Shown: positions 5,700 through 60,423 of the stretch, piece after piece
How the letters are laid out: every line of letters begins with the position of its first letter
Position numbering within the stretch: the first letter of the stretch is position 1
From: a virus
Virus genome (UHGV): UHGV-0038492
DNA: 64,000 nt
Strand: one strand, 5' to 3'
Translations under genes and position numbers: made by a program
The notes under the pieces: generated by a model
Told to the model about the DNA's origin: nothing
Seen by the model: the letters and a program-made list of their open reading frames with translations, nothing else
Database searches by the model: none

Positions 5700-8652
5700 A
5701 GTCTGCGGTGGTGTCGTGACGGTTGTAAACGATAACAACGTCGTCTTTCAGACCGATGTCACCACTGGCTTCAATATCCAGTTTCTTACCAATCGTTGCG
5801 CGTGCAGCTTCGGATACCACAGTAAACAGACGCATGTCTTTGTCTGGACCCATCGCATCCAACTCAACCCCGATGATCGACGTGTCAAGCGTTTCGCTGA
5901 GCTCATTACCAATCTCTGTTGCCGAGATAGTAAGATGTGAACCCAAGTAGTCGTTGATAACTTGAGACGTTTTCTTACGAATCTGCGTTAACAGATCGCT
6001 GTTGCTACGGTTAGCCGCTGTGAGGTAATAACGAACGGTAAACTGGTTTTCAGCCGGTTTCGGCGTCACCACCCCGTCTTCGGTACGTGCATCGATATAA
6101 CCCATCGTGGTGATAGGAACGAAATACCCTTCCGTACGCTCTAACAACATCGGTTTTAACGTCGGTAGAACCACGGTCACGTAGTTAACGATATTCTCAA
6201 TAACTGCGTTCAGATAGGATTTCGCAGACGCTGTGGTAGCGAATTTATAACGTGCGTCGAAGACCGCCATTTCACTACGGAACTTAATAGAACGAGATTT
6301 CGCAATCTTAGGATTACCGTACTCGTCTTTTACTAAGTCCCCTTCGTGGTGCAGGATAATCTGCTGGCCGGTTTCGTCAAGCTTAGGATCGCCTTTACGG
6401 TGTTCGTAAGTGATTTGTAGCGGTGGTGTACGGCCTGCGTCATACGTGTAAACCGGAACCCCATTCTCATCACGTTTCACCACGTCAATTTCCCACGTCG
6501 CTAACACGTCTTTGTCGTAATACTCGTAGTTGATGCTGTCAGTAACAGCACGCGCTTTACGCCAATAGTACGTCATCGCTTTACCCAGTTCGATTTTGAA
6601 TATCTCGTGGGTAATACCGATAGCGTCACGAGAAGGCGCTGTGATTAACGTATCCATCTCTACACGTTCGTAGTTCCCAGGGTAATAACCTGTGCAACCG
6701 TAGAACAGGTTAAAATCTGTCAGCAGTGGAACAGGTGTTTCCGTTGGGTTACTTCCGTTAATGCGGGTGTTGGTCAGTACCAGTTCGTCGTTACGGTCAA
6801 CGTCCAGGTTAGTTTCCAGCAAGAACTCCCAAACACGTTCACTGCCCTGCTTACCGACTAACGTACCGTTAATGTACGCCAAGGTGTTATCGGAATTACG
6901 AGGACGGAAAGACAGCTGTGCAAAGACTTGGTCATCAGTCAGTGCCTGGTAAGGTGCTTCTGACTTCGTAATCGTACGCAACACATAACCTGCTTCCGTT
7001 TTCTCGATAGTGTAGTCAGCAGTAACGACGCTGAGCTCCGTCGAGACGTTGGTCGCAATAAAGCGTTTGGAGTTTAATAGCGGTTTATCCAACTGGTAAA
7101 TACGCACGTCAATCGCTTTGTTGTTAATGTCAACAACGTAATGGAACGGTGTAAACAAATAACGGTTCGTGTTTGCTGCGTTAATCAAGTCTTCCTTACG
7201 CATGGTCTTCGCCAATACCGTCATCTCGGCATCTACAGTCAGACTGGTATCCGTAAAGCGATAGAGTGTGTCAGGAAGAATGGTCAGGCGATTACCGTTG
7301 ACTTTCACTGTCGGAAGATTAACCAGCTCGTTCCAGGAGAAATAGAACGGCGCAGTAATCGTACCAATCGGTGAGCTGACGTTAGCAATCGTCGATTCCA
7401 ACATCGGTGCTGTCATGAAGTACGTACGACTGGTCACATAGTCGTTAGGTTTAGACAGCGTAAGACCGTAATCGGAAACCGTAGCTTCAAGCTGCTTTTC
7501 CGTCACAGGTAATTTACGTGCACCCACAGCGTTATTAACAACGCGAGTACGTAAGTCACTGAACGAGAGCTGACTGCGACCACCCGACAGCATCTTCCCA
7601 GCTTTTGCTGCAAGCTGTTTAATAGAGAATGCTTTAATCGGGTTGATATAGTTCGCGTCATACTCTTCGTTTAAGTCACGTAGACTGAAGCTATACTCAT
7701 CAGACGGGTATGCAGAGATGTCTAACTCCAACGGCCCTAAGGTCGTATAGACGTCCATCCTGATAGTCCCACTGACGAGATTCTTCGCCATGTAAATAGA
7801 TGGAATCGTACAACGGATGTTGCCGTTACCCACCTGAATCAATGCTGTTGGCGTGTTCGGGTCGTAAACATCCCGACTGTGGGTGTGCTGTATCTCTACC
7901 CACTTGTTGCTGCCCGTTGCCTTCATCCAAACACGAACGTAGAAGAACTTGTTAGTGTAAGCACGGGTCATGACGAAAGTGTTGTTACCTTCGACAGTGT
8001 TACTTTCTTCTTTCACCGCATACTGCATAACCGGGATATGAATAGCCAGCAGCTGTGACGACGTTGTGTTAGTGGACGTTAGTTCCCATTCCAGGGCGTT
8101 CGTGGAAACTGGTGAAATCGGCGATTGTGTTTCAGTAATCCACAGTACCTGGAATGCCGGGTTCTCGTTCGTTCCGTATGGAAGTACACGGATTTCGATT
8201 GGGTACTGAATAGCAAACGTGTAACCAGAAACCGTAAAAACAGTGTCACGTGGGATAACGACTTTACGAACCCCCGCGATTTGCAACGGATACGCTTTCG
8301 AGATTAAGCTGTCAACGTCAATTAACAGTAACAGTTCTGTAGTAGCAGGCTGCGCAAAGACGTCAACGTAATCCACGTCTGACATGTGTCGGAACAGGTC
8401 ATCGTAGGTCTGTGCCATTGACGGGAACGTTTTAGGAATAGATTCCTGGAGCCCCATCAACGTCGCGTGTCCCATCATCGTTCCCATTTCTGCCAAATAA
8501 ACGACAGGGTCGGTAGGGTCACGGAGATAAATTTGACCATCGGCATCTTCAACATCTTGAAGCTGGTTTAGCAGCATTGTCTGCATCGCCGCAGGGTTGT
8601 GTGCGAACAGCAGAAGTTTCTTTGCCAAAGTATCGTAAGTTGTTGAACTCAT
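5698..8652 (-). CDS. hypothetical large protein (984 aa)
   Basis: Long ORF; start overlaps stop of upstream minus-strand gene at 8652 (coupled pair); no catalytic motif recognised. Confidence 0.65.
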   Translation of the reverse strand: MSSTTYDTLAKKLLLFAHNPAAMQTMLLNQLQDVEDADGQIYLRDPTDPVVYLAEMGTMMGHATLMGLQESIPKTFPSMAQTYDDLFRHMSDVDYVDVFAQPATTELLLLIDVDSLISKAYPLQIAGVRKVVIPRDTVFTVSGYTFAIQYPIEIRVLPYGTNENPAFQVLWITETQSPISPVSTNALEWELTSTNTTSSQLLAIHIPVMQYAVKEESNTVEGNNTFVMTRAYTNKFFYVRVWMKATGSNKWVEIQHTHSRDVYDPNTPTALIQVGNGNIRCTIPSIYMAKNLVSGTIRMDVYTTLGPLELDISAYPSDEYSFSLRDLNEEYDANYINPIKAFSIKQLAAKAGKMLSGGRSQLSFSDLRTRVVNNAVGARKLPVTEKQLEATVSDYGLTLSKPNDYVTSRTYFMTAPMLESTIANVSSPIGTITAPFYFSWNELVNLPTVKVNGNRLTILPDTLYRFTDTSLTVDAEMTVLAKTMRKEDLINAANTNRYLFTPFHYVVDINNKAIDVRIYQLDKPLLNSKRFIATNVSTELSVVTADYTIEKTEAGYVLRTITKSEAPYQALTDDQVFAQLSFRPRNSDNTLAYINGTLVGKQGSERVWEFLLETNLDVDRNDELVLTNTRINGSNPTETPVPLLTDFNLFYGCTGYYPGNYERVEMDTLITAPSRDAIGITHEIFKIELGKAMTYYWRKARAVTDSINYEYYDKDVLATWEIDVVKRDENGVPVYTYDAGRTPPLQITYEHRKGDPKLDETGQQIILHHEGDLVKDEYGNPKIAKSRSIKFRSEMAVFDARYKFATTASAKSYLNAVIENIVNYVTVVLPTLKPMLLERTEGYFVPITTMGYIDARTEDGVVTPKPAENQFTVRYYLTAANRSNSDLLTQIRKKTSQVINDYLGSHLTISATEIGNELSETLDTSIIGVELDAMGPDKDMRLFTVVSEAARATIGKKLDIEASGDIGLKDDVVIVYNRHDTTAD

Positions 8653-42302: not shown

Positions 42303-42956
42303 ATGGAACCACTACGTTTAATGACCAGAACGCTACTGATTCCTATCTGGGAATTGAAGCTTGCCCCATTGTCTGCCTCTAATGGGGAGGTCATTGATTT
42401 TATTAAAGACGAAGAATTTGTGTTGACGGCTTTCCAGGAGACGCTGCATCGTTATTATAATGCAGTGCCTTTATCTGGCGGATTAGATTGCCCTGGTGTA
42501 GAAGGGAGTACGTCTGCGTTAATCGCAGAGTATTTAGAACAGAAAGGAATCGGGGTTGGGAAAGGCCGGGTTTATGTGGACGCCGATAAACTGAGGAGTT
42601 ACCAGATTGAGCTGACGTTTCAGATAAGAAAATTACTTACCCGCTACGGTCTTTTCTCGATTAACTGTAAGGTTGATGACGTACGGATGTTAGACCACGG
42701 TTTTACCACTGTCCTCAAAACCTGTCGCGGTAAAAGATTCGTACAGTTTGCGTGGTGGGTACCAGTATTGCGTGGTGAGAGAAAAACGGTGGAGGGGTTG
42801 TACGGCTGGGCGCTATGGAGCGAAGTTCCAGTAAATAAACTCGATGCAGTTATTCCAAAGCACCGAAACGTTCCGCTTAGCAGTTTATTTACTTCCGGCG
42901 AGAACACTACGTGGGCTGAATTCGTTAATAACGTTATGTCAATTGGGGAACAATAA
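42303..42956 (+). CDS. hypothetical protein (217 aa)
   Basis: RBS aaggagac before ATG 42303. Confidence 0.6.
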   Translation: MEPLRLMTRTLLIPIWELKLAPLSASNGEVIDFIKDEEFVLTAFQETLHRYYNAVPLSGGLDCPGVEGSTSALIAEYLEQKGIGVGKGRVYVDADKLRSYQIELTFQIRKLLTRYGLFSINCKVDDVRMLDHGFTTVLKTCRGKRFVQFAWWVPVLRGERKTVEGLYGWALWSEVPVNKLDAVIPKHRNVPLSSLFTSGENTTWAEFVNNVMSIGEQ

Positions 42957-43432
42957 TGCAGCAATTAGATATTACCGAAGACAAAATCTCCGCTAAATTT
43001 CCACAATTACGTGAATACATCAAAGACTTAAATTCGATACGCGAAACACCGGTCCGCATTACCTTAGCGGTAGAAGATGACATTACACACGGTATTGCGA
43101 TTTGGGAACCGGGCAATCTTATCTATTTGGTGGTGGCGGAAGGTTCTCGACGTTTCGGTGTGGGTTCGTTCTTATTGCAGTACGTTCAGTTGAATTCCGA
43201 TCGTCAAATGGTGACGTGTCGTGTCCACCCTTCGAACATTGACGGCCTGTGTTTCTTTTCGAAAAAAGGCTACCAGATTGACCGTTGGTATATCGCCAGC
43301 GACTCTCGTCGGTATTTTCGTATGACGAACGGTAACGTTGTTTCGTCATACGCCCCGCCGGAAGAAGGATATTTGGTGGATTTTATCGAAAACACGCCCA
43401 TCTTTCTCTCTGTTGCGGATAAAATTTATTAA
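42956..43432 (+). CDS. GNAT-family N-acetyltransferase (158 aa)
   Basis: Acetyl-CoA-binding-like motif VVAEGSRRFGVGSFLLQYV, then a GNAT-like C-terminal region; coupled start (TAATG). Confidence 0.6.
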   Translation: MQQLDITEDKISAKFPQLREYIKDLNSIRETPVRITLAVEDDITHGIAIWEPGNLIYLVVAEGSRRFGVGSFLLQYVQLNSDRQMVTCRVHPSNIDGLCFFSKKGYQIDRWYIASDSRRYFRMTNGNVVSSYAPPEEGYLVDFIENTPIFLSVADKIY

Positions 43433-45737: not shown

Positions 45738-46871
45738 ATGTCAACGTTAGATAGCGACTTAGAAGTGCTTTGTGACGATTACGACCGACTCGTAGCGTTA
45801 GAATCCATTGGAGTAAAAGACAATTATCCGGCTATCGTTGCTATCCGTAAACGTTGGCTTTTGGATGATGTGGTTGTTGCGTCAGAGTCTGCGGCCATGA
45901 TGCACCGTGCACAGTTTTTGTCAGACACGGAACCTGATAAAGGGATAGGCAAAGCGGCGGCACGACTCACCGGACGTGCGGTTCGTGGCGTAAGTCGGGT
46001 AGCAGGACGTGCTGCCAGTGCAGGTGCAAAAGCATCGGCGAACTTCGCAGGTAAACATTCCAAACAACTTGCTTTACGTTTTGTGGATTTTGCTGAGGCT
46101 GCGGGTAAAGAAGTCATTAAGGAATTAAAAGAAGCGACGTCTAAAGCGACGACCTTAGAGCGCAAACTGCAAAAGTTAAATGCACGTCTAAATTTAATCG
46201 GTGACAAAGACACCTTAAAACCGGTTGACTGCGACACGGGAAGCTGGACGACCAAAGTTTGTTTAGAAGACAAACCTAACGTAAAAGCGTGTATTGAGTT
46301 CAGTAAGAACCTGAACGCAATGGATGCGATGGTCAACGAGTATACCGTTAAAACGCGCACCATTATCGGTAAGAGCAAGAAAGTTACTGAGAGTGGCTTG
46401 GAGAAAGTAGGTCGCTCAACGAACTGGGCGATTAAACGTAGTGCAGGGCTGTTCGGTATTATCGATCCGTTTAAAACGGTGAAAGCGTATCCGTGGCCAG
46501 GTAACGTGGTGGTCGTTGAACACGACAACGGTAAGATTGAGTGGGCGATTGCCCGTGATGGTGATTTTGGCCACTCAATCAAATCTCTGAACTTACACGA
46601 AATCGGTTCGGCTCTCGAAGCCGTTGAAAAAATTATCCGAGCTTTACGTCAGCGTGGTACGAAGCGACGTAGCGTTGGTTATACCGGTATTTACGATGAA
46701 GTTCAGCGAATGAAAAAAGAGCTGAAGTCGTTAGACGGTCGTGAGTTACGCGATGCTACCGTTCGGTATAAGAACGCACTGCGTTTAGAAGATGCGTTTA
46801 CTACCTCGTTAGTGCGTGTTGCGGAAGGCTTACTGGAATGGTGCAGGTTGTCGCTGATTGAGGTTAAATAA
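45738..46871 (+). CDS. hypothetical protein (377 aa)
   Basis: Long ORF; Ala/Arg-rich low-complexity stretch near residue 80. Confidence 0.6.
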   Translation: MSTLDSDLEVLCDDYDRLVALESIGVKDNYPAIVAIRKRWLLDDVVVASESAAMMHRAQFLSDTEPDKGIGKAAARLTGRAVRGVSRVAGRAASAGAKASANFAGKHSKQLALRFVDFAEAAGKEVIKELKEATSKATTLERKLQKLNARLNLIGDKDTLKPVDCDTGSWTTKVCLEDKPNVKACIEFSKNLNAMDAMVNEYTVKTRTIIGKSKKVTESGLEKVGRSTNWAIKRSAGLFGIIDPFKTVKAYPWPGNVVVVEHDNGKIEWAIARDGDFGHSIKSLNLHEIGSALEAVEKIIRALRQRGTKRRSVGYTGIYDEVQRMKKELKSLDGRELRDATVRYKNALRLEDAFTTSLVRVAEGLLEWCRLSLIEVK

Positions 46872-47338
46872 TGCGTATTACTATTATTCTCAAACCCGAC
46901 AGTAAATACGGAAAGTTATACGGCGACCAGGTACTCAAACTGCACAACATGTTGTTCGCAGAAGAGAAAGTGCGTATTAGTCAGTTAACTGGACGTGACA
47001 CGTTCAACCCCATCGAACGTTTAGAAGAGATTTGGCCTCAAGACTATCTCTGTGCGTGTGCGGTGGGTGACAACGAACAGCTTCTGGGATTTATGACGTT
47101 CTCATTGGGTTCTTGCTCAAAAGACACGTTTGTTTACATCGGGAATTACTATGTGATTCCTGAAGCACGTTCTCAAGGGGTAGGGCGTGCGCTTATGGAC
47201 AAAGTCCGTGAATACGGAAAGTCCAAAGGTTGTGGTTGGATGAGTCTGGATGTGTTAGACAACAACGTTAAAGCTATCTCCTTGTATGAGAAAATGGGAT
47301 TCCGTACCGAATGCAGGGAAATGATAAAGGAAATCTAA
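46871..47338 (+). CDS. GNAT-family N-acetyltransferase (155 aa)
   Basis: Classic motif A IPEARSQGVGRALMDKV and C-terminal LYEKMGF; coupled start (TAATG). Confidence 0.75.
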   Translation: MRITIILKPDSKYGKLYGDQVLKLHNMLFAEEKVRISQLTGRDTFNPIERLEEIWPQDYLCACAVGDNEQLLGFMTFSLGSCSKDTFVYIGNYYVIPEARSQGVGRALMDKVREYGKSKGCGWMSLDVLDNNVKAISLYEKMGFRTECREMIKEI

Positions 47339-48872: not shown

Positions 48873-48912
48873 CTTACCCCTACCTATCGGTAGGGGCGGG
48901 TTTCTTTTTTTA
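48873..48912 (+). terminator. Rho-independent terminator
   Basis: Stem cccctacc / ggtagggg with loop tatc, then cgggtttcttttttt. Confidence 0.8.
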
Positions 48913-49637: not shown

Positions 49638-49676
49638 TACCCCTACCTTCGGGTAGGGGATTATTTAATTTTTTCT
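49638..49676 (+). terminator. Rho-independent terminator
   Basis: Stem acccctacc / ggtagggg with loop ttcg, then attatttaatttttt. Confidence 0.8.
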
Positions 49677-49717
49677 CAGATATATATTACCTTAGTGAGA
49701 TTACACAGTAATCTCTT
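49677..49717 (+). promoter_or_regulatory. conserved promoter-like element copy 4
   Basis: tcAGATATATATTACCTTAGTGAGATTACacaGTAATCTC with perfect 8 bp inverted repeat GAGATTAC/GTAATCTC. Confidence 0.5.
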
Positions 49718-50825: not shown

Positions 50826-50857
50826 ACAGGGAGCTTCGGCTCCCTTTTTCTTTTTAC
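50826..50857 (+). terminator. Rho-independent terminator
   Basis: Stem agggagc / gctccct with loop ttcg, then ttttctttttt. Confidence 0.75.
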
Positions 50858-50901: not shown

Positions 50902-51888
50902 ATGGTATATCGTAAAACGATAGAAAGAACCTCTTCTGATTTAACCGTAGGACGCTTAACCCGTAGAGATATTCGCAATCCTCAGCTTCAGGCATGTTTA
51001 ACGGGGCCTAACGGTGCGGTGATTCGAGAAGCACTGTGTAATACCGAGCTGAATACGTTCTCTTTACAAAAAGGAAAAACAATCCAAGGGTTTATCATCA
51101 CAAAACACATTTACGGCGACCCAACGTTACACTGCTTGTATATGCACGAAATTGTACCTGGGTGTTTGAACAAACTGAGCCTTCTATTGGTACTTGACTA
51201 TACGGGTTTTACGTACCTTAACCGAATTGCCAGAGGTGTGGAAGAAATCGCCGAGCTTAACGATTTAGGGTTTAGACATACCCACACAGCATATCGTTTA
51301 GGTACACGTAAGTTACTGGATGTCACTTTACCGACGAACGTGAAGAACGTCTCCGACGACTTCTATAAAGACTTAACCGGAGCACAACGTGAACAGCTTA
51401 TGATGTTGCTTGGCACTAGCGTCGTTGAAAACATCAATGCTGACCCTGTAACGCGTTCTCGACAAATAATGCCACAAGTTGAAACATTGGTGGAATTAGT
51501 GCGGCACGTCAATCACTACACTTACGTTTGGATGGACGGTAATGACGTTGTGGGTGTGGTGCAAGTTAAATCACGCAATCTTAGCGAGTGCGAACTAAAA
51601 GCCATTGCGGTAAGTGAAACACACCGGGGCCGTGGGATTGGGCGTGCGTTGTTGTACCGTGCTTTACAGATTGCATCGACAACAGCGGCACCATTAGAAA
51701 TAGGGTGTTACAATAACAACCCAGCATTTAGACACCTGGCCGTAGATTTGTTTAAATTCCGTCCCTACGAGTACGAATTTGTTTTAGTGCGCGACGACGA
51801 TGTCGTCAGTTGGGAGCGTCGGAAAAACCGCGTCGAGTTAGTGTTAGGCGACGAAATGTCATCGTTACAAGGCGGAATTAATGCATAA
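50902..51888 (+). CDS. GNAT-domain protein (328 aa; acetyltransferase fold in C-terminal half)
   Basis: RBS aaggag before ATG; C-terminal half carries VGVVQV...IAVSETHRGRGIGRALLYRA motif; N-terminal half unassigned. Confidence 0.55.
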   Translation: MVYRKTIERTSSDLTVGRLTRRDIRNPQLQACLTGPNGAVIREALCNTELNTFSLQKGKTIQGFIITKHIYGDPTLHCLYMHEIVPGCLNKLSLLLVLDYTGFTYLNRIARGVEEIAELNDLGFRHTHTAYRLGTRKLLDVTLPTNVKNVSDDFYKDLTGAQREQLMMLLGTSVVENINADPVTRSRQIMPQVETLVELVRHVNHYTYVWMDGNDVVGVVQVKSRNLSECELKAIAVSETHRGRGIGRALLYRALQIASTTAAPLEIGCYNNNPAFRHLAVDLFKFRPYEYEFVLVRDDDVVSWERRKNRVELVLGDEMSSLQGGINA

Positions 51889-52696
51889 ACCAATTATAAA
51901 GTGGATGGGTGGCAAATCGCGGATTATCGACACCTTACTACAAGTCTTACCTGAACGTACCACTTTCGTTGAACCGTTTGTTGGCGCAGGGTCAGTGTTT
52001 TTGAACACACGTTATAAACGTTACATTCTTGCTGACTCTAACCCTGACTTAATCCAGTTGCTGAATGTAGCGAAAGACCAACCTGAAGAACTTATCTTGA
52101 AGTCGAAACCGCTATTCGAAGACGGTAACGATTGTATTAAGTATATGGAGAGACGAGAACTGTTTAATCGCGAAACGGATATGGCTCCGTTAGACCGGGC
52201 AGCAATGTTTCTGTACTTAATGCGTCACGGTTTTAACGGGATGTGTCGTTACAACGGCAGCGGGGGTTTTAACGTTCCGTTTGGTCGCTATCCTAACGGT
52301 GTGTATTACCCGTTAGAAGAGATTCGTGGTTGGGCTAAACGTTGTCAAGAACCGGAATACTTAGAAATTGTTTGTGAAGATTTCCGAACAGTTTTAGAGC
52401 GTACGCCGGAAGACAGTGTGATTTACGCAGACCCACCGTATATACCGCTCTCAGAGACCGCTAAACACGCGCAATACCATCGGAAGGAGTTTTCCCAGGC
52501 CGACCATCGGGAACTCGCCAGAGCGCTGTTTAAGCAGGTTGAGAAGGGGAATAGCGTTGTGTTGTCCAATGCGGATACGTTACTAACGCGTGAGATTTAT
52601 TACGGGTTCGAATGGCGTTCTGTGGAAGTTGGCCGATACATGGGTGCGTCAGGTGCTGCTCGTAAAACGGTAACGGAATTGTTAGGAGTGCTCTAA
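51881..52696 (+). CDS. dam: DNA adenine methyltransferase (Dam-like, N6-adenine)
   Basis: WMGGKSR, VEPFVGAGSVFLNT, YILADSNPDLI and catalytic DPPY motifs in Dam order; closely parallels E. coli Dam. Confidence 0.93.
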   Translation: MHKPIIKWMGGKSRIIDTLLQVLPERTTFVEPFVGAGSVFLNTRYKRYILADSNPDLIQLLNVAKDQPEELILKSKPLFEDGNDCIKYMERRELFNRETDMAPLDRAAMFLYLMRHGFNGMCRYNGSGGFNVPFGRYPNGVYYPLEEIRGWAKRCQEPEYLEIVCEDFRTVLERTPEDSVIYADPPYIPLSETAKHAQYHRKEFSQADHRELARALFKQVEKGNSVVLSNADTLLTREIYYGFEWRSVEVGRYMGASGAARKTVTELLGVL

Positions 52697-53469
52697 TGCG
52701 TATAGTGGATATCCACGATTATCGTAATGACCATTTAGCGATTGGTGTAGAAGGTAAGATGGTTTCGTTAACCCGTGTACGCAAAGGGTTAATGGAAAAG
52801 GAGATCATTCGGGAGTCCGAAGACCCTACCTTTATCATCCTTTCGAACACTAATCAGTTACAGGGCATCTTTTCAGGGCGTGCTGACGGTAAGATTTTCT
52901 ATATGTCCGCAATCGTTGTGTTTGCGAAGAAGAACATCAACTTTGCCCAACTCAAACGTTTGTTAAACGTGAAGATGTTTGATGTCACCTACCCTGCTAA
53001 TGACCTAAAACGTCGTGATCAGTTAATGGCGTTTTTGGGTATGCAGCCAACGTCAATCGATTATGACCTTACGATTACTGAAAAGCCGGAAGTACGTACT
53101 GACTTACCTGACGTGGTCGACGTTGAATCCCTAACGTTAGAAGAGACGTTTACGATTCCTAAGGTTGTTAATGTCAACCTGGACACGCACTGTTTAGGGT
53201 TGTTAGCCGTAGGTGCAGCAGAAGGGTTGTGTTGTCGTAAAGACGGTAAGGTTGAAGGAATCTTAGTCTATTCGAAAATCAACGAAAAGACGTTTGCCAC
53301 CGAAGGCTTTTTCTATAACGACTGTACTTACGGAAACGCACTACTAACCACGTATTTCCGTATTGCTTATCTGAAAGGCGCAACTGTACGCCTCACGTTT
53401 CCATACACAGCTCCACCGTCTATGGGTGGAGTTGAGGTAGAACCATTAACCGGCCACTTTATCTTTTAA
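52696..53469 (+). CDS. hypothetical protein (257 aa)
   Basis: Coupled start (TAATG) directly after dam. Confidence 0.6.
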   Translation: MRIVDIHDYRNDHLAIGVEGKMVSLTRVRKGLMEKEIIRESEDPTFIILSNTNQLQGIFSGRADGKIFYMSAIVVFAKKNINFAQLKRLLNVKMFDVTYPANDLKRRDQLMAFLGMQPTSIDYDLTITEKPEVRTDLPDVVDVESLTLEETFTIPKVVNVNLDTHCLGLLAVGAAEGLCCRKDGKVEGILVYSKINEKTFATEGFFYNDCTYGNALLTTYFRIAYLKGATVRLTFPYTAPPSMGGVEVEPLTGHFIF

Positions 53470-53478
53470 GGATGATGA

Positions 53479-53706
53479 ATGGAAATCAAACGTATTGTAA
53501 CCAAAAACAAACAGATTGTTTACGTCGCAGGTGATAACGAATTCTCGGCGGTAATCAACAGCGAAAATGTGCTCGTTATCGGTTATCCGGGTAAAGTTAT
53601 TACGCGCAGTCACCAACGTGTGATTGACAAACTTATCGCAAAAGCGAAAGCGCGTGACGGTGTTGGTTCAGTACAAACCCACACGGGGTTAACGCTGGCC
53701 CTCTAG
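53479..53706 (+). CDS. hypothetical protein (75 aa)
   Basis: RBS aaggatg before ATG 53479. Confidence 0.5.
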   Translation: MEIKRIVTKNKQIVYVAGDNEFSAVINSENVLVIGYPGKVITRSHQRVIDKLIAKAKARDGVGSVQTHTGLTLAL

Positions 53707-53745
53707 TCAGCAGGTAATATGACCTCTTAACTGGAGACTTTAATA

Positions 53746-54252
53746 ATGAGTGAGACTCTGGATTTTAATCAGCTCGAACAACACGATTTCGACCTCGGTG
53801 TTCGTGATATCGATGCTGATCATGAAACACGTTGTAAAGAGCTGTTTAACCGTTACGGTCAGCTCATCACCGGTGCCTCTGATGACACCGAATTCAGTTT
53901 AGATGAGTTTGAAAAAGTTCTGTCGTGTTTTATCACTGACTGTCTGGCGAAGAAAGCGTTGCTGGTCGAACTGAACTTAGACTCCGTCGAACCTACTGAT
54001 GCCCATGCGGTGTTGAAAGAATCCATTATCCCAACTGATGAGATTATGGACACTGTCGCAGGTATTCGCGGTACGTTTGAAACTGCCGTAGAAGAATACA
54101 CGGAACAGCTTCGTGAATCAGGACTGACGTTGTGTGCGCCAGCAGGTGAGCCTTTACCGTCCGACGAAGAAACTGAAGAAGCGCGTAGTCGCTTAGCGCG
54201 TTATGTTATTACGTCTATCTTGGTAGATGATCGCGAAGAGAATCTGCTATAA
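53746..54252 (+). CDS. highly acidic hypothetical protein (168 aa)
   Basis: RBS tggagac; composition rich in Asp/Glu (net charge roughly -20 by eye); terminator follows. Confidence 0.6.
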   Translation: MSETLDFNQLEQHDFDLGVRDIDADHETRCKELFNRYGQLITGASDDTEFSLDEFEKVLSCFITDCLAKKALLVELNLDSVEPTDAHAVLKESIIPTDEIMDTVAGIRGTFETAVEEYTEQLRESGLTLCAPAGEPLPSDEETEEARSRLARYVITSILVDDREENLL

Positions 54253-54254
54253 GC

Positions 54255-54295
54255 TGCCCCTCTCTCCGTTTGGAGAGAGGGTGTATTTATTTTTA
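54255..54295 (+). terminator. Rho-independent terminator
   Basis: Stem cccctctctcc / ggagagaggg with loop gttt, then gtatttattttt. Confidence 0.8.
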
Positions 54296-54350: not shown

Positions 54351-54668
54351 ATGTGGTTAAGTGCTATTCACCGTGATTTGCCAAAACGTGAAGTGTCGTT
54401 TACTGTTGAGGACGCACCGATTGAGGTAGGCGTCGCGAAATTCGAAAGAATCGAAGAAGGGCAGTTTGTTGTAATGGATGACAACGACAACGAATTTATG
54501 TTGTTCCATCCGGAAGTTGACACGTCTGAAATTTGTGACGGTGTTCTTTTGTTGTCTTGGCAAAACCCTGAAACCAAAGAATGGATGTGGTGTGTTGCTA
54601 AACCGACAAATGAAGCCGAAACTGCATACGTGTTTGGGGAAATTTATGTCGAGCCAGAACCGCACTAA
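54351..54668 (+). CDS. hypothetical protein (105 aa)
   Basis: RBS gaggaaa before ATG 54351. Confidence 0.55.
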   Translation: MWLSAIHRDLPKREVSFTVEDAPIEVGVAKFERIEEGQFVVMDDNDNEFMLFHPEVDTSEICDGVLLLSWQNPETKEWMWCVAKPTNEAETAYVFGEIYVEPEPH

Positions 54669-55301: not shown

Positions 55302-55342
55302 TGCCCCTCTCTCCGCTAGGAGAGAGGGTACTTTTATTTTTC
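55302..55342 (+). terminator. Rho-independent terminator (near-duplicate of 54255-54295)
   Basis: Stem cccctctctcc / ggagagaggg with loop gcta, then tacttttattttt. Confidence 0.8.
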
Positions 55343-56362: not shown

Positions 56363-56406
56363 CTTTTTACGAATGCAGCTATTTTAATGATTAGGAGAAT
56401 ATAGAG

Positions 56407-59859: not shown

Positions 59860-60423
59860 GTGGCCACATCTTACGTACCTGATTTGAGTCTGACCTCAGC
59901 AGAGCTAGTGGTCGCTTTAATCAATCATGATAACGGGTTACAGCTTACACTAAACGAAATCCGTATTAGCGGAACTGTAACAAACCCATCCCCAACAACT
60001 TCGCGACGTAACACTATCACCGAAATCAGTAAAATCAGAAAACCAGATGGTGCGTCTGTTGTGGTTTACTACGACAGACTTGACGCCGATGAGGTATTAA
60101 CGTCCGAACCTATTTTGATTTCGTTAGACGGTACCGAAGCGAACATTCGTGATGTGCTTAGTGTTGTAAATGAATACTGCGGTACGAATTTACAACCTGA
60201 GGACTTACGTGCCTCAGATATTACTTCAGGTAATGATCCTATTGCTATTAACGTTGCTGACGATTCTCCTGCCTGGATGAATGCGTTTATGGTGACGTTG
60301 TTTGATAAAACCGAACGTGCGTTAGCGAACGAAGAAGATGAAATCTTCTGCATCGGTGACGATAGCGTTCTTACATTCGAGGTTACAGATGGCGACAGCA
60401 CTGAAGAAGACGAGACTCCATGA
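59860..60423 (+). CDS. hypothetical protein (187 aa), acidic C-terminus
   Basis: RBS ggaggg before ATG 59860. Confidence 0.55.
   Translation: MATSYVPDLSLTSAELVVALINHDNGLQLTLNEIRISGTVTNPSPTTSRRNTITEISKIRKPDGASVVVYYDRLDADEVLTSEPILISLDGTEANIRDVLSVVNEYCGTNLQPEDLRASDITSGNDPIAINVADDSPAWMNAFMVTLFDKTERALANEEDEIFCIGDDSVLTFEVTDGDSTEEDETP

Follow-up and report, generated by a model that had tools for sequence, protein, structure and literature searches.

Chimalliviruses escape type I and type II restriction as well as DNA-targeting CRISPR systems, the enzymes being kept out of the phage nucleus and of the early infection vesicle (PMC12908238, PMC13282480), and DNA-modification systems have been reported to be less common among them (PMC7824862, PMC13282480). 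The phages SPN3US and Asesino are both reported to form a phage nucleus (review PMC13282480), and both carry the gene cluster considered here, in which gp105 of SPN3US and its counterparts in relatives were already annotated as DNA adenine methylases. A literature search returned no mention of SPN3US gp104-gp109. The version of this cluster analysed here lies at positions 50902-54252 of a 64,000-nucleotide stretch of UHGV virus genome UHGV-0038492 (the window, in what follows), where it forms a five-gene operon that includes a Dam-type N6-adenine methyltransferase gene and ends in a gene, orf168, for a strongly acidic protein of 168 amino acids (aa). A first-pass annotation of the sequence had taken the cluster for an anti-restriction module, with the acidic protein as a DNA mimic of the Ocr or ArdA type. 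The present analysis supports the operon and the methyltransferase, places the acidic protein, on sequence and model comparisons, outside both of those families, and tentatively favors a role for it as a polyanionic decoy.

The operon and its acidic last gene

The operon and the terminators that bracket it are composed as follows.

50828-50845, + strand: intrinsic terminator closing the preceding transcription unit and marking the upstream operon boundary (AGGGAGCTTCGGCTCCCT then TTTTTCTTTTT)
50902-51888, + strand: GNAT N-acetyltransferase gene, SPN3US gp104 family, phrog_8663, 328 aa
51881-52696, + strand: Dam N6-adenine DNA methyltransferase gene (D12 class, alpha-type), 271 aa
52696-53469, + strand: orf257, predicted tandem GNAT-fold protein, SPN3US gp106 family, phrog_9941, 257 aa
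53479-53706, + strand: orf75, small basic protein, SPN3US gp108 family, phrog_7896, 75 aa
53746-54252, + strand: orf168, acidic protein, predicted all-helical orphan, SPN3US gp109 family, phrog_8221, 168 aa
54258-54281, + strand: intrinsic terminator ending the operon directly 3' of orf168 (CCCTCTCTCCGTTTGGAGAGAGGG then TGTATTTATT; 10-bp stem with 7/10 pairs GC, followed by a T-run)

The GNAT and Dam genes overlap by 8 nucleotides (nt) and the Dam gene and orf257 by 1 nt (TAATG), while orf257 and orf75 are separated by 9 nt, with a Shine-Dalgarno-like sequence before orf75, and orf75 and orf168 by 39 nt, with a Shine-Dalgarno-like GGAG. A + strand scan found no terminator between those at 50828-50845 and 54258-54281. 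Because terminators flank this region and none lies inside it on the + strand, 50902-54252 is a terminator-bracketed five-gene operon, GNAT gene included. The first-pass annotation had placed the genes at 51881-54252 with a terminator after the acidic gene, and open reading frames (ORFs) and terminator are found where it put them; it had also offered the upstream GNAT gene as a possible member of the operon, which the 8-nt overlap and the uninterrupted + strand confirm. The same five genes, with the same lengths, were recovered on four related contigs by independent gene callers. The operon is accessory and non-structural and resembles a host-interaction block.

The acidity of the last gene product, pointed out in the first-pass annotation, is readily quantified. 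The 168-aa protein contains 17 Asp and 23 Glu residues against 14 Lys and Arg, which corresponds to 23.8% acidic residues, a net charge of -26, a charge density of -0.155 per residue and an isoelectric point (pI) of 4.15, and, per residue, no other product of the 66 non-overlapping ORFs in the window, which have a median pI of 6.3, is as acidic. Thirteen homologues, down to 33% identity, have pI values of 4.05-4.36 and net charges of -20 to -26, and 15 positions are acidic in at least 80% of the 13. Comparison with four relatives that are ~95% nucleotide-identical gave ratios of nonsynonymous to synonymous substitution rates (dN/dS) of 0.04-0.05, indicating strong purifying selection. The acidic protein is real and constrained, and since its charge is conserved under strong purifying selection, the negative charge is probably functional. 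Its identity to the SPN3US protein is 42%, compared to 67.5% for Dam and 67.6% for orf105, the next gene downstream, and these alignments indicate that orf168 diverges faster over long distances than either of the two.

Database searches placed orf168 in phrog_8221 (E 6e-57), a family with no assigned function and its only match in PHROGs; no match was obtained in Pfam (E<=0.1), PADLOC or NCBIfam. When 1.84 billion representative proteins were searched exhaustively with HMMER, only 11 clusters matched, and profile searching of 5.8 billion proteins yielded no relative beyond the clade. Searches of the PDB with the single sequence and with the family profile produced chance-level matches only. 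The AlphaFold model is all-helical, with six helices (predicted local distance difference test, pLDDT, 79.9; predicted template modeling score, pTM, 0.62); it has no fold match to any solved structure, and Foldseek against BFVD returned only its own family. From these results, orf168 is best described as a clade-restricted, all-helical orphan. Its most conserved stretches are the N-terminal QHDFDLGVRD, which is modeled at low pLDDT, and the C-terminal RLARYVITSxLVDDREE.

The order in which the Dam gene is followed by zero to three GNAT-like genes, the small protein gene (phrog_7896) and the acidic protein gene is kept widely across the clade, being found in Seoulvirus, Machinavirus, Erskinevirus, Wellingtonvirus, the window lineage and three divergent metagenomic lineages, and eight of the nine lineages examined have the Dam gene upstream of the acidic one. 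A minimal arrangement, GNAT-Dam-small-acidic, occurs in the metagenomic locus L021. The small basic gene adjoins the acidic gene in every lineage but Derbicusvirus (CR5, Phobos), in which the GNAT genes and the small protein gene follow tmk and ~9 kb of other genes (thymidylate synthase, MazG, AAA+ ATPase) lie between the small gene and the acidic gene. Derbicusvirus has the acidic protein and no orthologous Dam, so the acidic protein persists without Dam, and the link between the two is one of conserved gene order, not of demonstrated functional dependence. The analysis newly defines a conserved core made up of Dam, the small basic protein and the acidic protein.

The small basic protein, orf75, has a pI of 9.9 and matches phrog_7896 (E 7e-22), and its family profile gave no match in the PDB. 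A family hidden Markov model located the small gene directly upstream of the acidic gene in the metagenomic loci L019 and L021, and the product keeps a pI of 7.8-9.9 across the lineages checked. It is 75 aa long in the window and its close relatives and ~88-97 aa elsewhere, the window lineage lacking the C-terminal ~17 residues. Identity to the SPN3US counterpart is 43%, similar to the 42% of the acidic protein.

Several features were observed around the operon. Identical terminator stems are reused, CCCTCTCTCC/GGAGAGAGGG at 54258-54281 and 55305-55328 and CCCCTACC/GGTAGGGG at 48877-48896 and 49640-49659, each closing a successive short transcription unit. The heptamer TTTTTAC is present at 50851 and 54290, inside or directly behind the T-tracts of the terminators that lie ahead of the GNAT operon and of the orf105 unit, and a third copy, at 56364, stands where the short gap leading to the 56407 gene begins, while TATATTAC is found at 49683, upstream of a helix-turn-helix gene. 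The heptamer and TATATTAC resemble the AT-rich early-promoter consensus of phiKZ-like virion RNA polymerases; these candidate matches are few and sensibly placed. The orf105 unit (54351-54668), which has its own terminator boundaries, encodes a 105-aa orthologue of SPN3US gp110 (phrog_9789; pI 4.2, net charge -16) that is much better conserved than orf168.

Methyltransferase, GNAT-type proteins and phage lineage

The methyltransferase was identified from several comparisons. It matches Pfam PF02086 (E 1.3e-57; 195.9 bits, cut-off 22) and TIGR00571 (254.7 bits, cut-off 114.85), aligns end to end with E. coli Dam (EcoDam, 2g1p; E 1e-63), and carries motif I, EPFVGAGSVF (FxGxG), near the N-terminus and motif IV, IYADPPY, near residue 185, the alpha-class order. 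The EcoDam GATC-contact residues K9, N120, R124, P134, R137 and Y138 are identical in the phage protein in the 2g1p alignment, and the changes at two further contact positions, Y119F and L122M, are conservative. The first-pass call of a Dam-type N6-adenine methyltransferase with a DPPY motif was therefore correct. The best PADLOC model is "orphan methyltransferase", a cognate endonuclease is absent, and dN/dS within the lineage is 0-0.01. An orthodox EcoDam-like enzyme with predicted GATC specificity is well supported by these alignments, and most likely it methylates the phage's own GATC-poor DNA.

That DNA is strongly depleted in GATC, with 111 sites observed in the window compared to 282 expected from a second-order expectation, a ratio of 0.39, and the sites show no cluster tied to the operon. 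The observed/expected ratio is 0.40 in SPN3US, 0.17-0.28 in the Dam-encoding Erwinia relatives, 0.22 in CR5, which lacks Dam, and 0.04-0.06 in the 12-kb loci of Derbicusvirus. Among the other palindromic tetramers tabulated, GTAC and CATG are at ~0.8-1.1 and CTAG is low too. Because GATC is depleted in the window and in all relatives, the data show some GATC-directed pressure across the clade, and this clade-wide avoidance is new here. Stronger avoidance following the loss of Dam was considered and rejected, as there is no clean correlation: CR5 is lower than SPN3US, yet the Dam-encoding Erwinia phages are equally low. A conserved GATC methylase in a GATC-depleted, DNA-shielding lineage raises the question of what methylation is for in chimalliviruses, and candidate purposes are protection before the nucleus forms, control of packaging or replication, and avoidance of MutH or of GATC-specific nucleases. 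In L019, the most divergent metagenomic lineage, Dam (6168-7286) is 372 aa long owing to a C-terminal extension of ~100 aa without a known domain, and two small basic proteins are encoded upstream of it in place of the GNAT-like genes.

The first gene of the operon matches Pfam Acetyltransf_1 over residues 198-279 (E 1.2e-11; 45.3 bits, cut-off 20.7) and phrog_8663 (E 3e-44), and its translation contains the acetyl-CoA motif HRGRGIGRAL. Its product has a tandem architecture with an active-looking C-terminal GNAT domain. The gene after Dam, orf257, is the orthologue of SPN3US gp106. It has no Pfam match, and no member of the gp106 family has a Pfam GNAT match; profile-profile comparison of the gp106 family with the gp104 GNAT family gave a probability of 94% (E 1.4e-7) over 200 columns, and orf257 was found to have the GNAT fold. 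The acetyl-CoA pyrophosphate motif Q/RxxGxG/A is unconserved in an 11-sequence alignment of the gp106 family, and the glycines are absent at the position aligned to the HQxxGIGR motif of the gp104 family. Since this motif is not conserved, orf257 is probably a degenerate, non-catalytic tandem-GNAT-fold paralogue of the upstream GNAT, a status newly recognised here for the gp106 family.

The number of ~265-aa genes between the Dam gene and the small gene varies, from none in L021 and one in the window to two in SPN3US, Kwan, phiEaH2 and the metagenomic lineage L020 and three in ChrisDB and Caitlin. These genes fall into three families at the BLAST level, gp106-like, gp107-like and a third. A relationship to the upstream GNAT is detectable for the gp106 family alone, and gp107-like genes are missing from the window phage. 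Comparison of gp106 with gp107 and with the third family by hhalign gave probabilities of 26-29%, suggestive of a common origin and not significant. Elsewhere in the window, the genes at 42956-43432 and 46871-47338 match the SPN3US acetyltransferases gp178 (59% identity) and gp171 (47%), and with these at least four GNAT-type proteins are encoded within 12 kb. For jumbo-phage GNATs, modification of host proteins, RNA polymerase for example, has been proposed (Iyer et al. PMC7824862), and the paralogue array suggests a part in host-protein modification or takeover.

Megablast of 4 kb against 50,697 phage records (INPHARED) gave no match, and relatives were reached by tblastn only. Using orf168 as the query, tblastn identified 62 phage records, all of them SPN3US-like or Erwinia jumbo phages, with Salmonella, Erwinia, Escherichia, Cronobacter and Proteus as hosts and belonging to Seoulvirus (SPN3US), Machinavirus, Erskinevirus, Wellingtonvirus and Derbicusvirus. 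The window shares collinearity with the 44-106 kb segment of SPN3US, at protein identities of 24-84%, and it encodes phiKZ-type major head, helicase, polymerase and virion proteins. Copies ~95% identical were found in a human-gut metagenome, a JGI metagenome and assemblies of Salmonella Dublin and Shigella sonnei, the contigs reaching lengths of 226 kb. Because phage records gave no megablast match and copies are present in metagenomes and bacterial assemblies, the window is assigned by sequence to an uncultured SPN3US-like jumbo-phage lineage of enterobacteria. By homology to SPN3US and Asesino, the window phage should form a nucleus. The lineage looks like a lytic jumbo phage riding along in bacterial assemblies.

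Readings of the acidic protein

Given the conserved charge and the constraint on orf168, the reading we prefer, with a probability of only about 35%, is that the acidic protein acts as a polyanionic decoy, its target being either a basic host protein that binds nucleic acids or the small basic protein whose gene lies just upstream. Such a decoy would work electrostatically, as a broad-sense nucleic-acid mimic that binds its basic target and neutralises it. Possible host targets are factors such as a nucleoid protein, RNA polymerase or a DNA-sensing defence protein. We consider a dedicated inhibitor of type I restriction less likely, and the need for a classical mimic of the Ocr/ArdA type is lowered because the phage nucleus, reported for SPN3US and Asesino, shields the DNA. 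Several points weigh against a decoy. No sequence or structural similarity of orf168 to any known DNA mimic was found, and for SPN3US gp109 the literature search turned up nothing on the timing of expression, on localisation or on interactions. Conserved gene order is weak evidence for functional coupling here, since the genomes are collinear throughout. Acidity alone discriminates poorly, because an equally acidic 187-aa protein of the window, encoded at 59860-60423 (pI 4.05, net charge -25), is a virion structural protein by its matches to PHROG families phrog_2935 and phrog_1037. In addition, the conserved stretches QHDFDLGVRD and RLARYVITSxLVDDREE contain hydrophobic and basic residues, which point to specific protein-protein contacts for which mimicry is unnecessary.

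A narrower form of the decoy, in which orf168 would be a new-fold nucleic-acid mimic acting in the host cytoplasm on a host DNA- or RNA-binding factor, not on classical restriction enzymes, and maybe paired with the small basic protein, is possible but rather improbable; its target might then be a nucleoid protein, RNA polymerase or a defence sensor active while the phage is in the early infection vesicle.

About as doubtful is an arrangement without any host target, in which the small basic protein and the acidic protein would form a dedicated two-gene unit and the acidic protein would serve as chaperone, antagonist or regulator of the basic one, itself perhaps a nucleic-acid binder. The adjacency of the two genes in every lineage but Derbicusvirus, including the most divergent metagenomic ones, is consistent with such a unit, as are the opposite charges of the products in the window (pI 9.9 vs 4.15), the pI range kept by the small protein across lineages and the similar divergence of the pair from SPN3US. 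However, in CR5 inserted genes hold the two ~9 kb apart and both persist, and a net charge of -26 is far above what would be needed for neutralising a partner of +5.

We likewise hold it unlikely that orf168 has nothing to do with mimicry and is instead, for example, an assembly or scaffolding factor or a factor of the nuclear shell or of the early infection vesicle, or serves the neighbouring GNATs as an adaptor. Such roles would fit its terminal motifs with their hydrophobic and basic residues, the strong purifying selection, a modeled fold that matches nothing known and the structural nature of the other extremely acidic protein of the window. Yet the gene sits in a non-structural block beside nucleotide-metabolism and regulatory genes, and gp109 goes unmentioned in the main text of the paper on essential genes and head structure of SPN3US. 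The family is also absent from chimalliviruses outside the enterobacterial clade, and a core role in the nucleus or in assembly is therefore unlikely.

The original proposal, that an Ocr/ArdA-like DNA mimic blocks type I (or BREX-type) restriction and together with Dam makes a two-pronged anti-restriction module, is less probable still. The size, net charge and pI of orf168 are within the range of DNA mimics (T7 Ocr has a pI of 4.05 and a net charge of -28), acidity is a family-wide trait, orf168 is transcribed together with the Dam gene and syntenic with it in eight of nine lineages, and the GATC depletion across the clade (observed/expected 0.04-0.40) means that GATC-directed pressure exists. 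However, orf168 gave no match to the Ocr family (PF08684) in Pfam at E<=0.1, its family profile aligned to T7 Ocr by hhalign with a probability of 1.4%, and no match to ArdA (PF07275) was found in Pfam, NCBIfam or PADLOC; PDB sequence and profile searches were empty. The all-alpha model has no Ocr or ArdA neighbour and shows neither the Ocr fold nor the elongated three-domain alpha/beta fold of ArdA. With no Pfam, PDB or hhalign match, orf168 is placed by sequence and model outside the Ocr and ArdA families, and that part of the proposal, for which no PHROG function was found either, has no backing. This missing homology is not decisive for mimicry as such, because DNA mimics have unrelated folds. 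Its charge density is also below that of Ocr, Derbicusvirus has the acidic protein without Dam, and phages that form a nucleus already escape restriction of types I and II (PMC12908238, PMC13282480). Of the proposed module, the operon, the methyltransferase, the acidity and the Dam-acidic order thus stood and the Ocr/ArdA link did not, which leaves the module as a whole weakly supported. A GNAT array flanking Dam as a Mom-type adenine-directed DNA-modification module is speculative, has no sequence support and is very improbable.

The result is mostly a clean re-annotation in which gp109 is still an orphan with a plausible mimic-like role. If the decoy is true, nucleus-forming phages would still need cytoplasmic counter-measures besides the shell, and a nucleic-acid-mimicking decoy would add a new fold to the repertoire of DNA mimics. 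SPN3US is a genetic model with amber mutants, which makes gp105 and gp109 directly testable.

Comparison with known systems

The closest known systems for orf257 and the upstream GNAT are the tandem-GNAT proteins MshD (1ozp), VipF (6wqb), 3frm and MAB_4324 (7q3a). Unlike these, orf257 has neither a Pfam GNAT match nor a conserved Q/RxxGxG/A motif. The methyltransferase is like E. coli Dam and the phage orphan Dam enzymes (PF02086, TIGR00571) in its full-length alignment, motifs, contact residues and lack of a cognate endonuclease. It differs from E. coli Dam in its setting, being encoded by a jumbo phage that is predicted to form a nucleus and so to protect its DNA from cytoplasmic nucleases already, and whose genome, its likely target, is strongly depleted in GATC (observed/expected 0.39). 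ArdA and orf168 are both strongly acidic and are close in length (~166-168 aa). The acidic protein also resembles T7 Ocr (gp0.3) in its small size and strong acidity, the pI being 4.05 and the net charge -28 for Ocr compared to 4.15 and -26 for orf168, in being largely helical, by the model in the case of orf168, and in being encoded in a non-structural region; the two differ in charge density, which is -0.239 per residue in Ocr and -0.155 in orf168.

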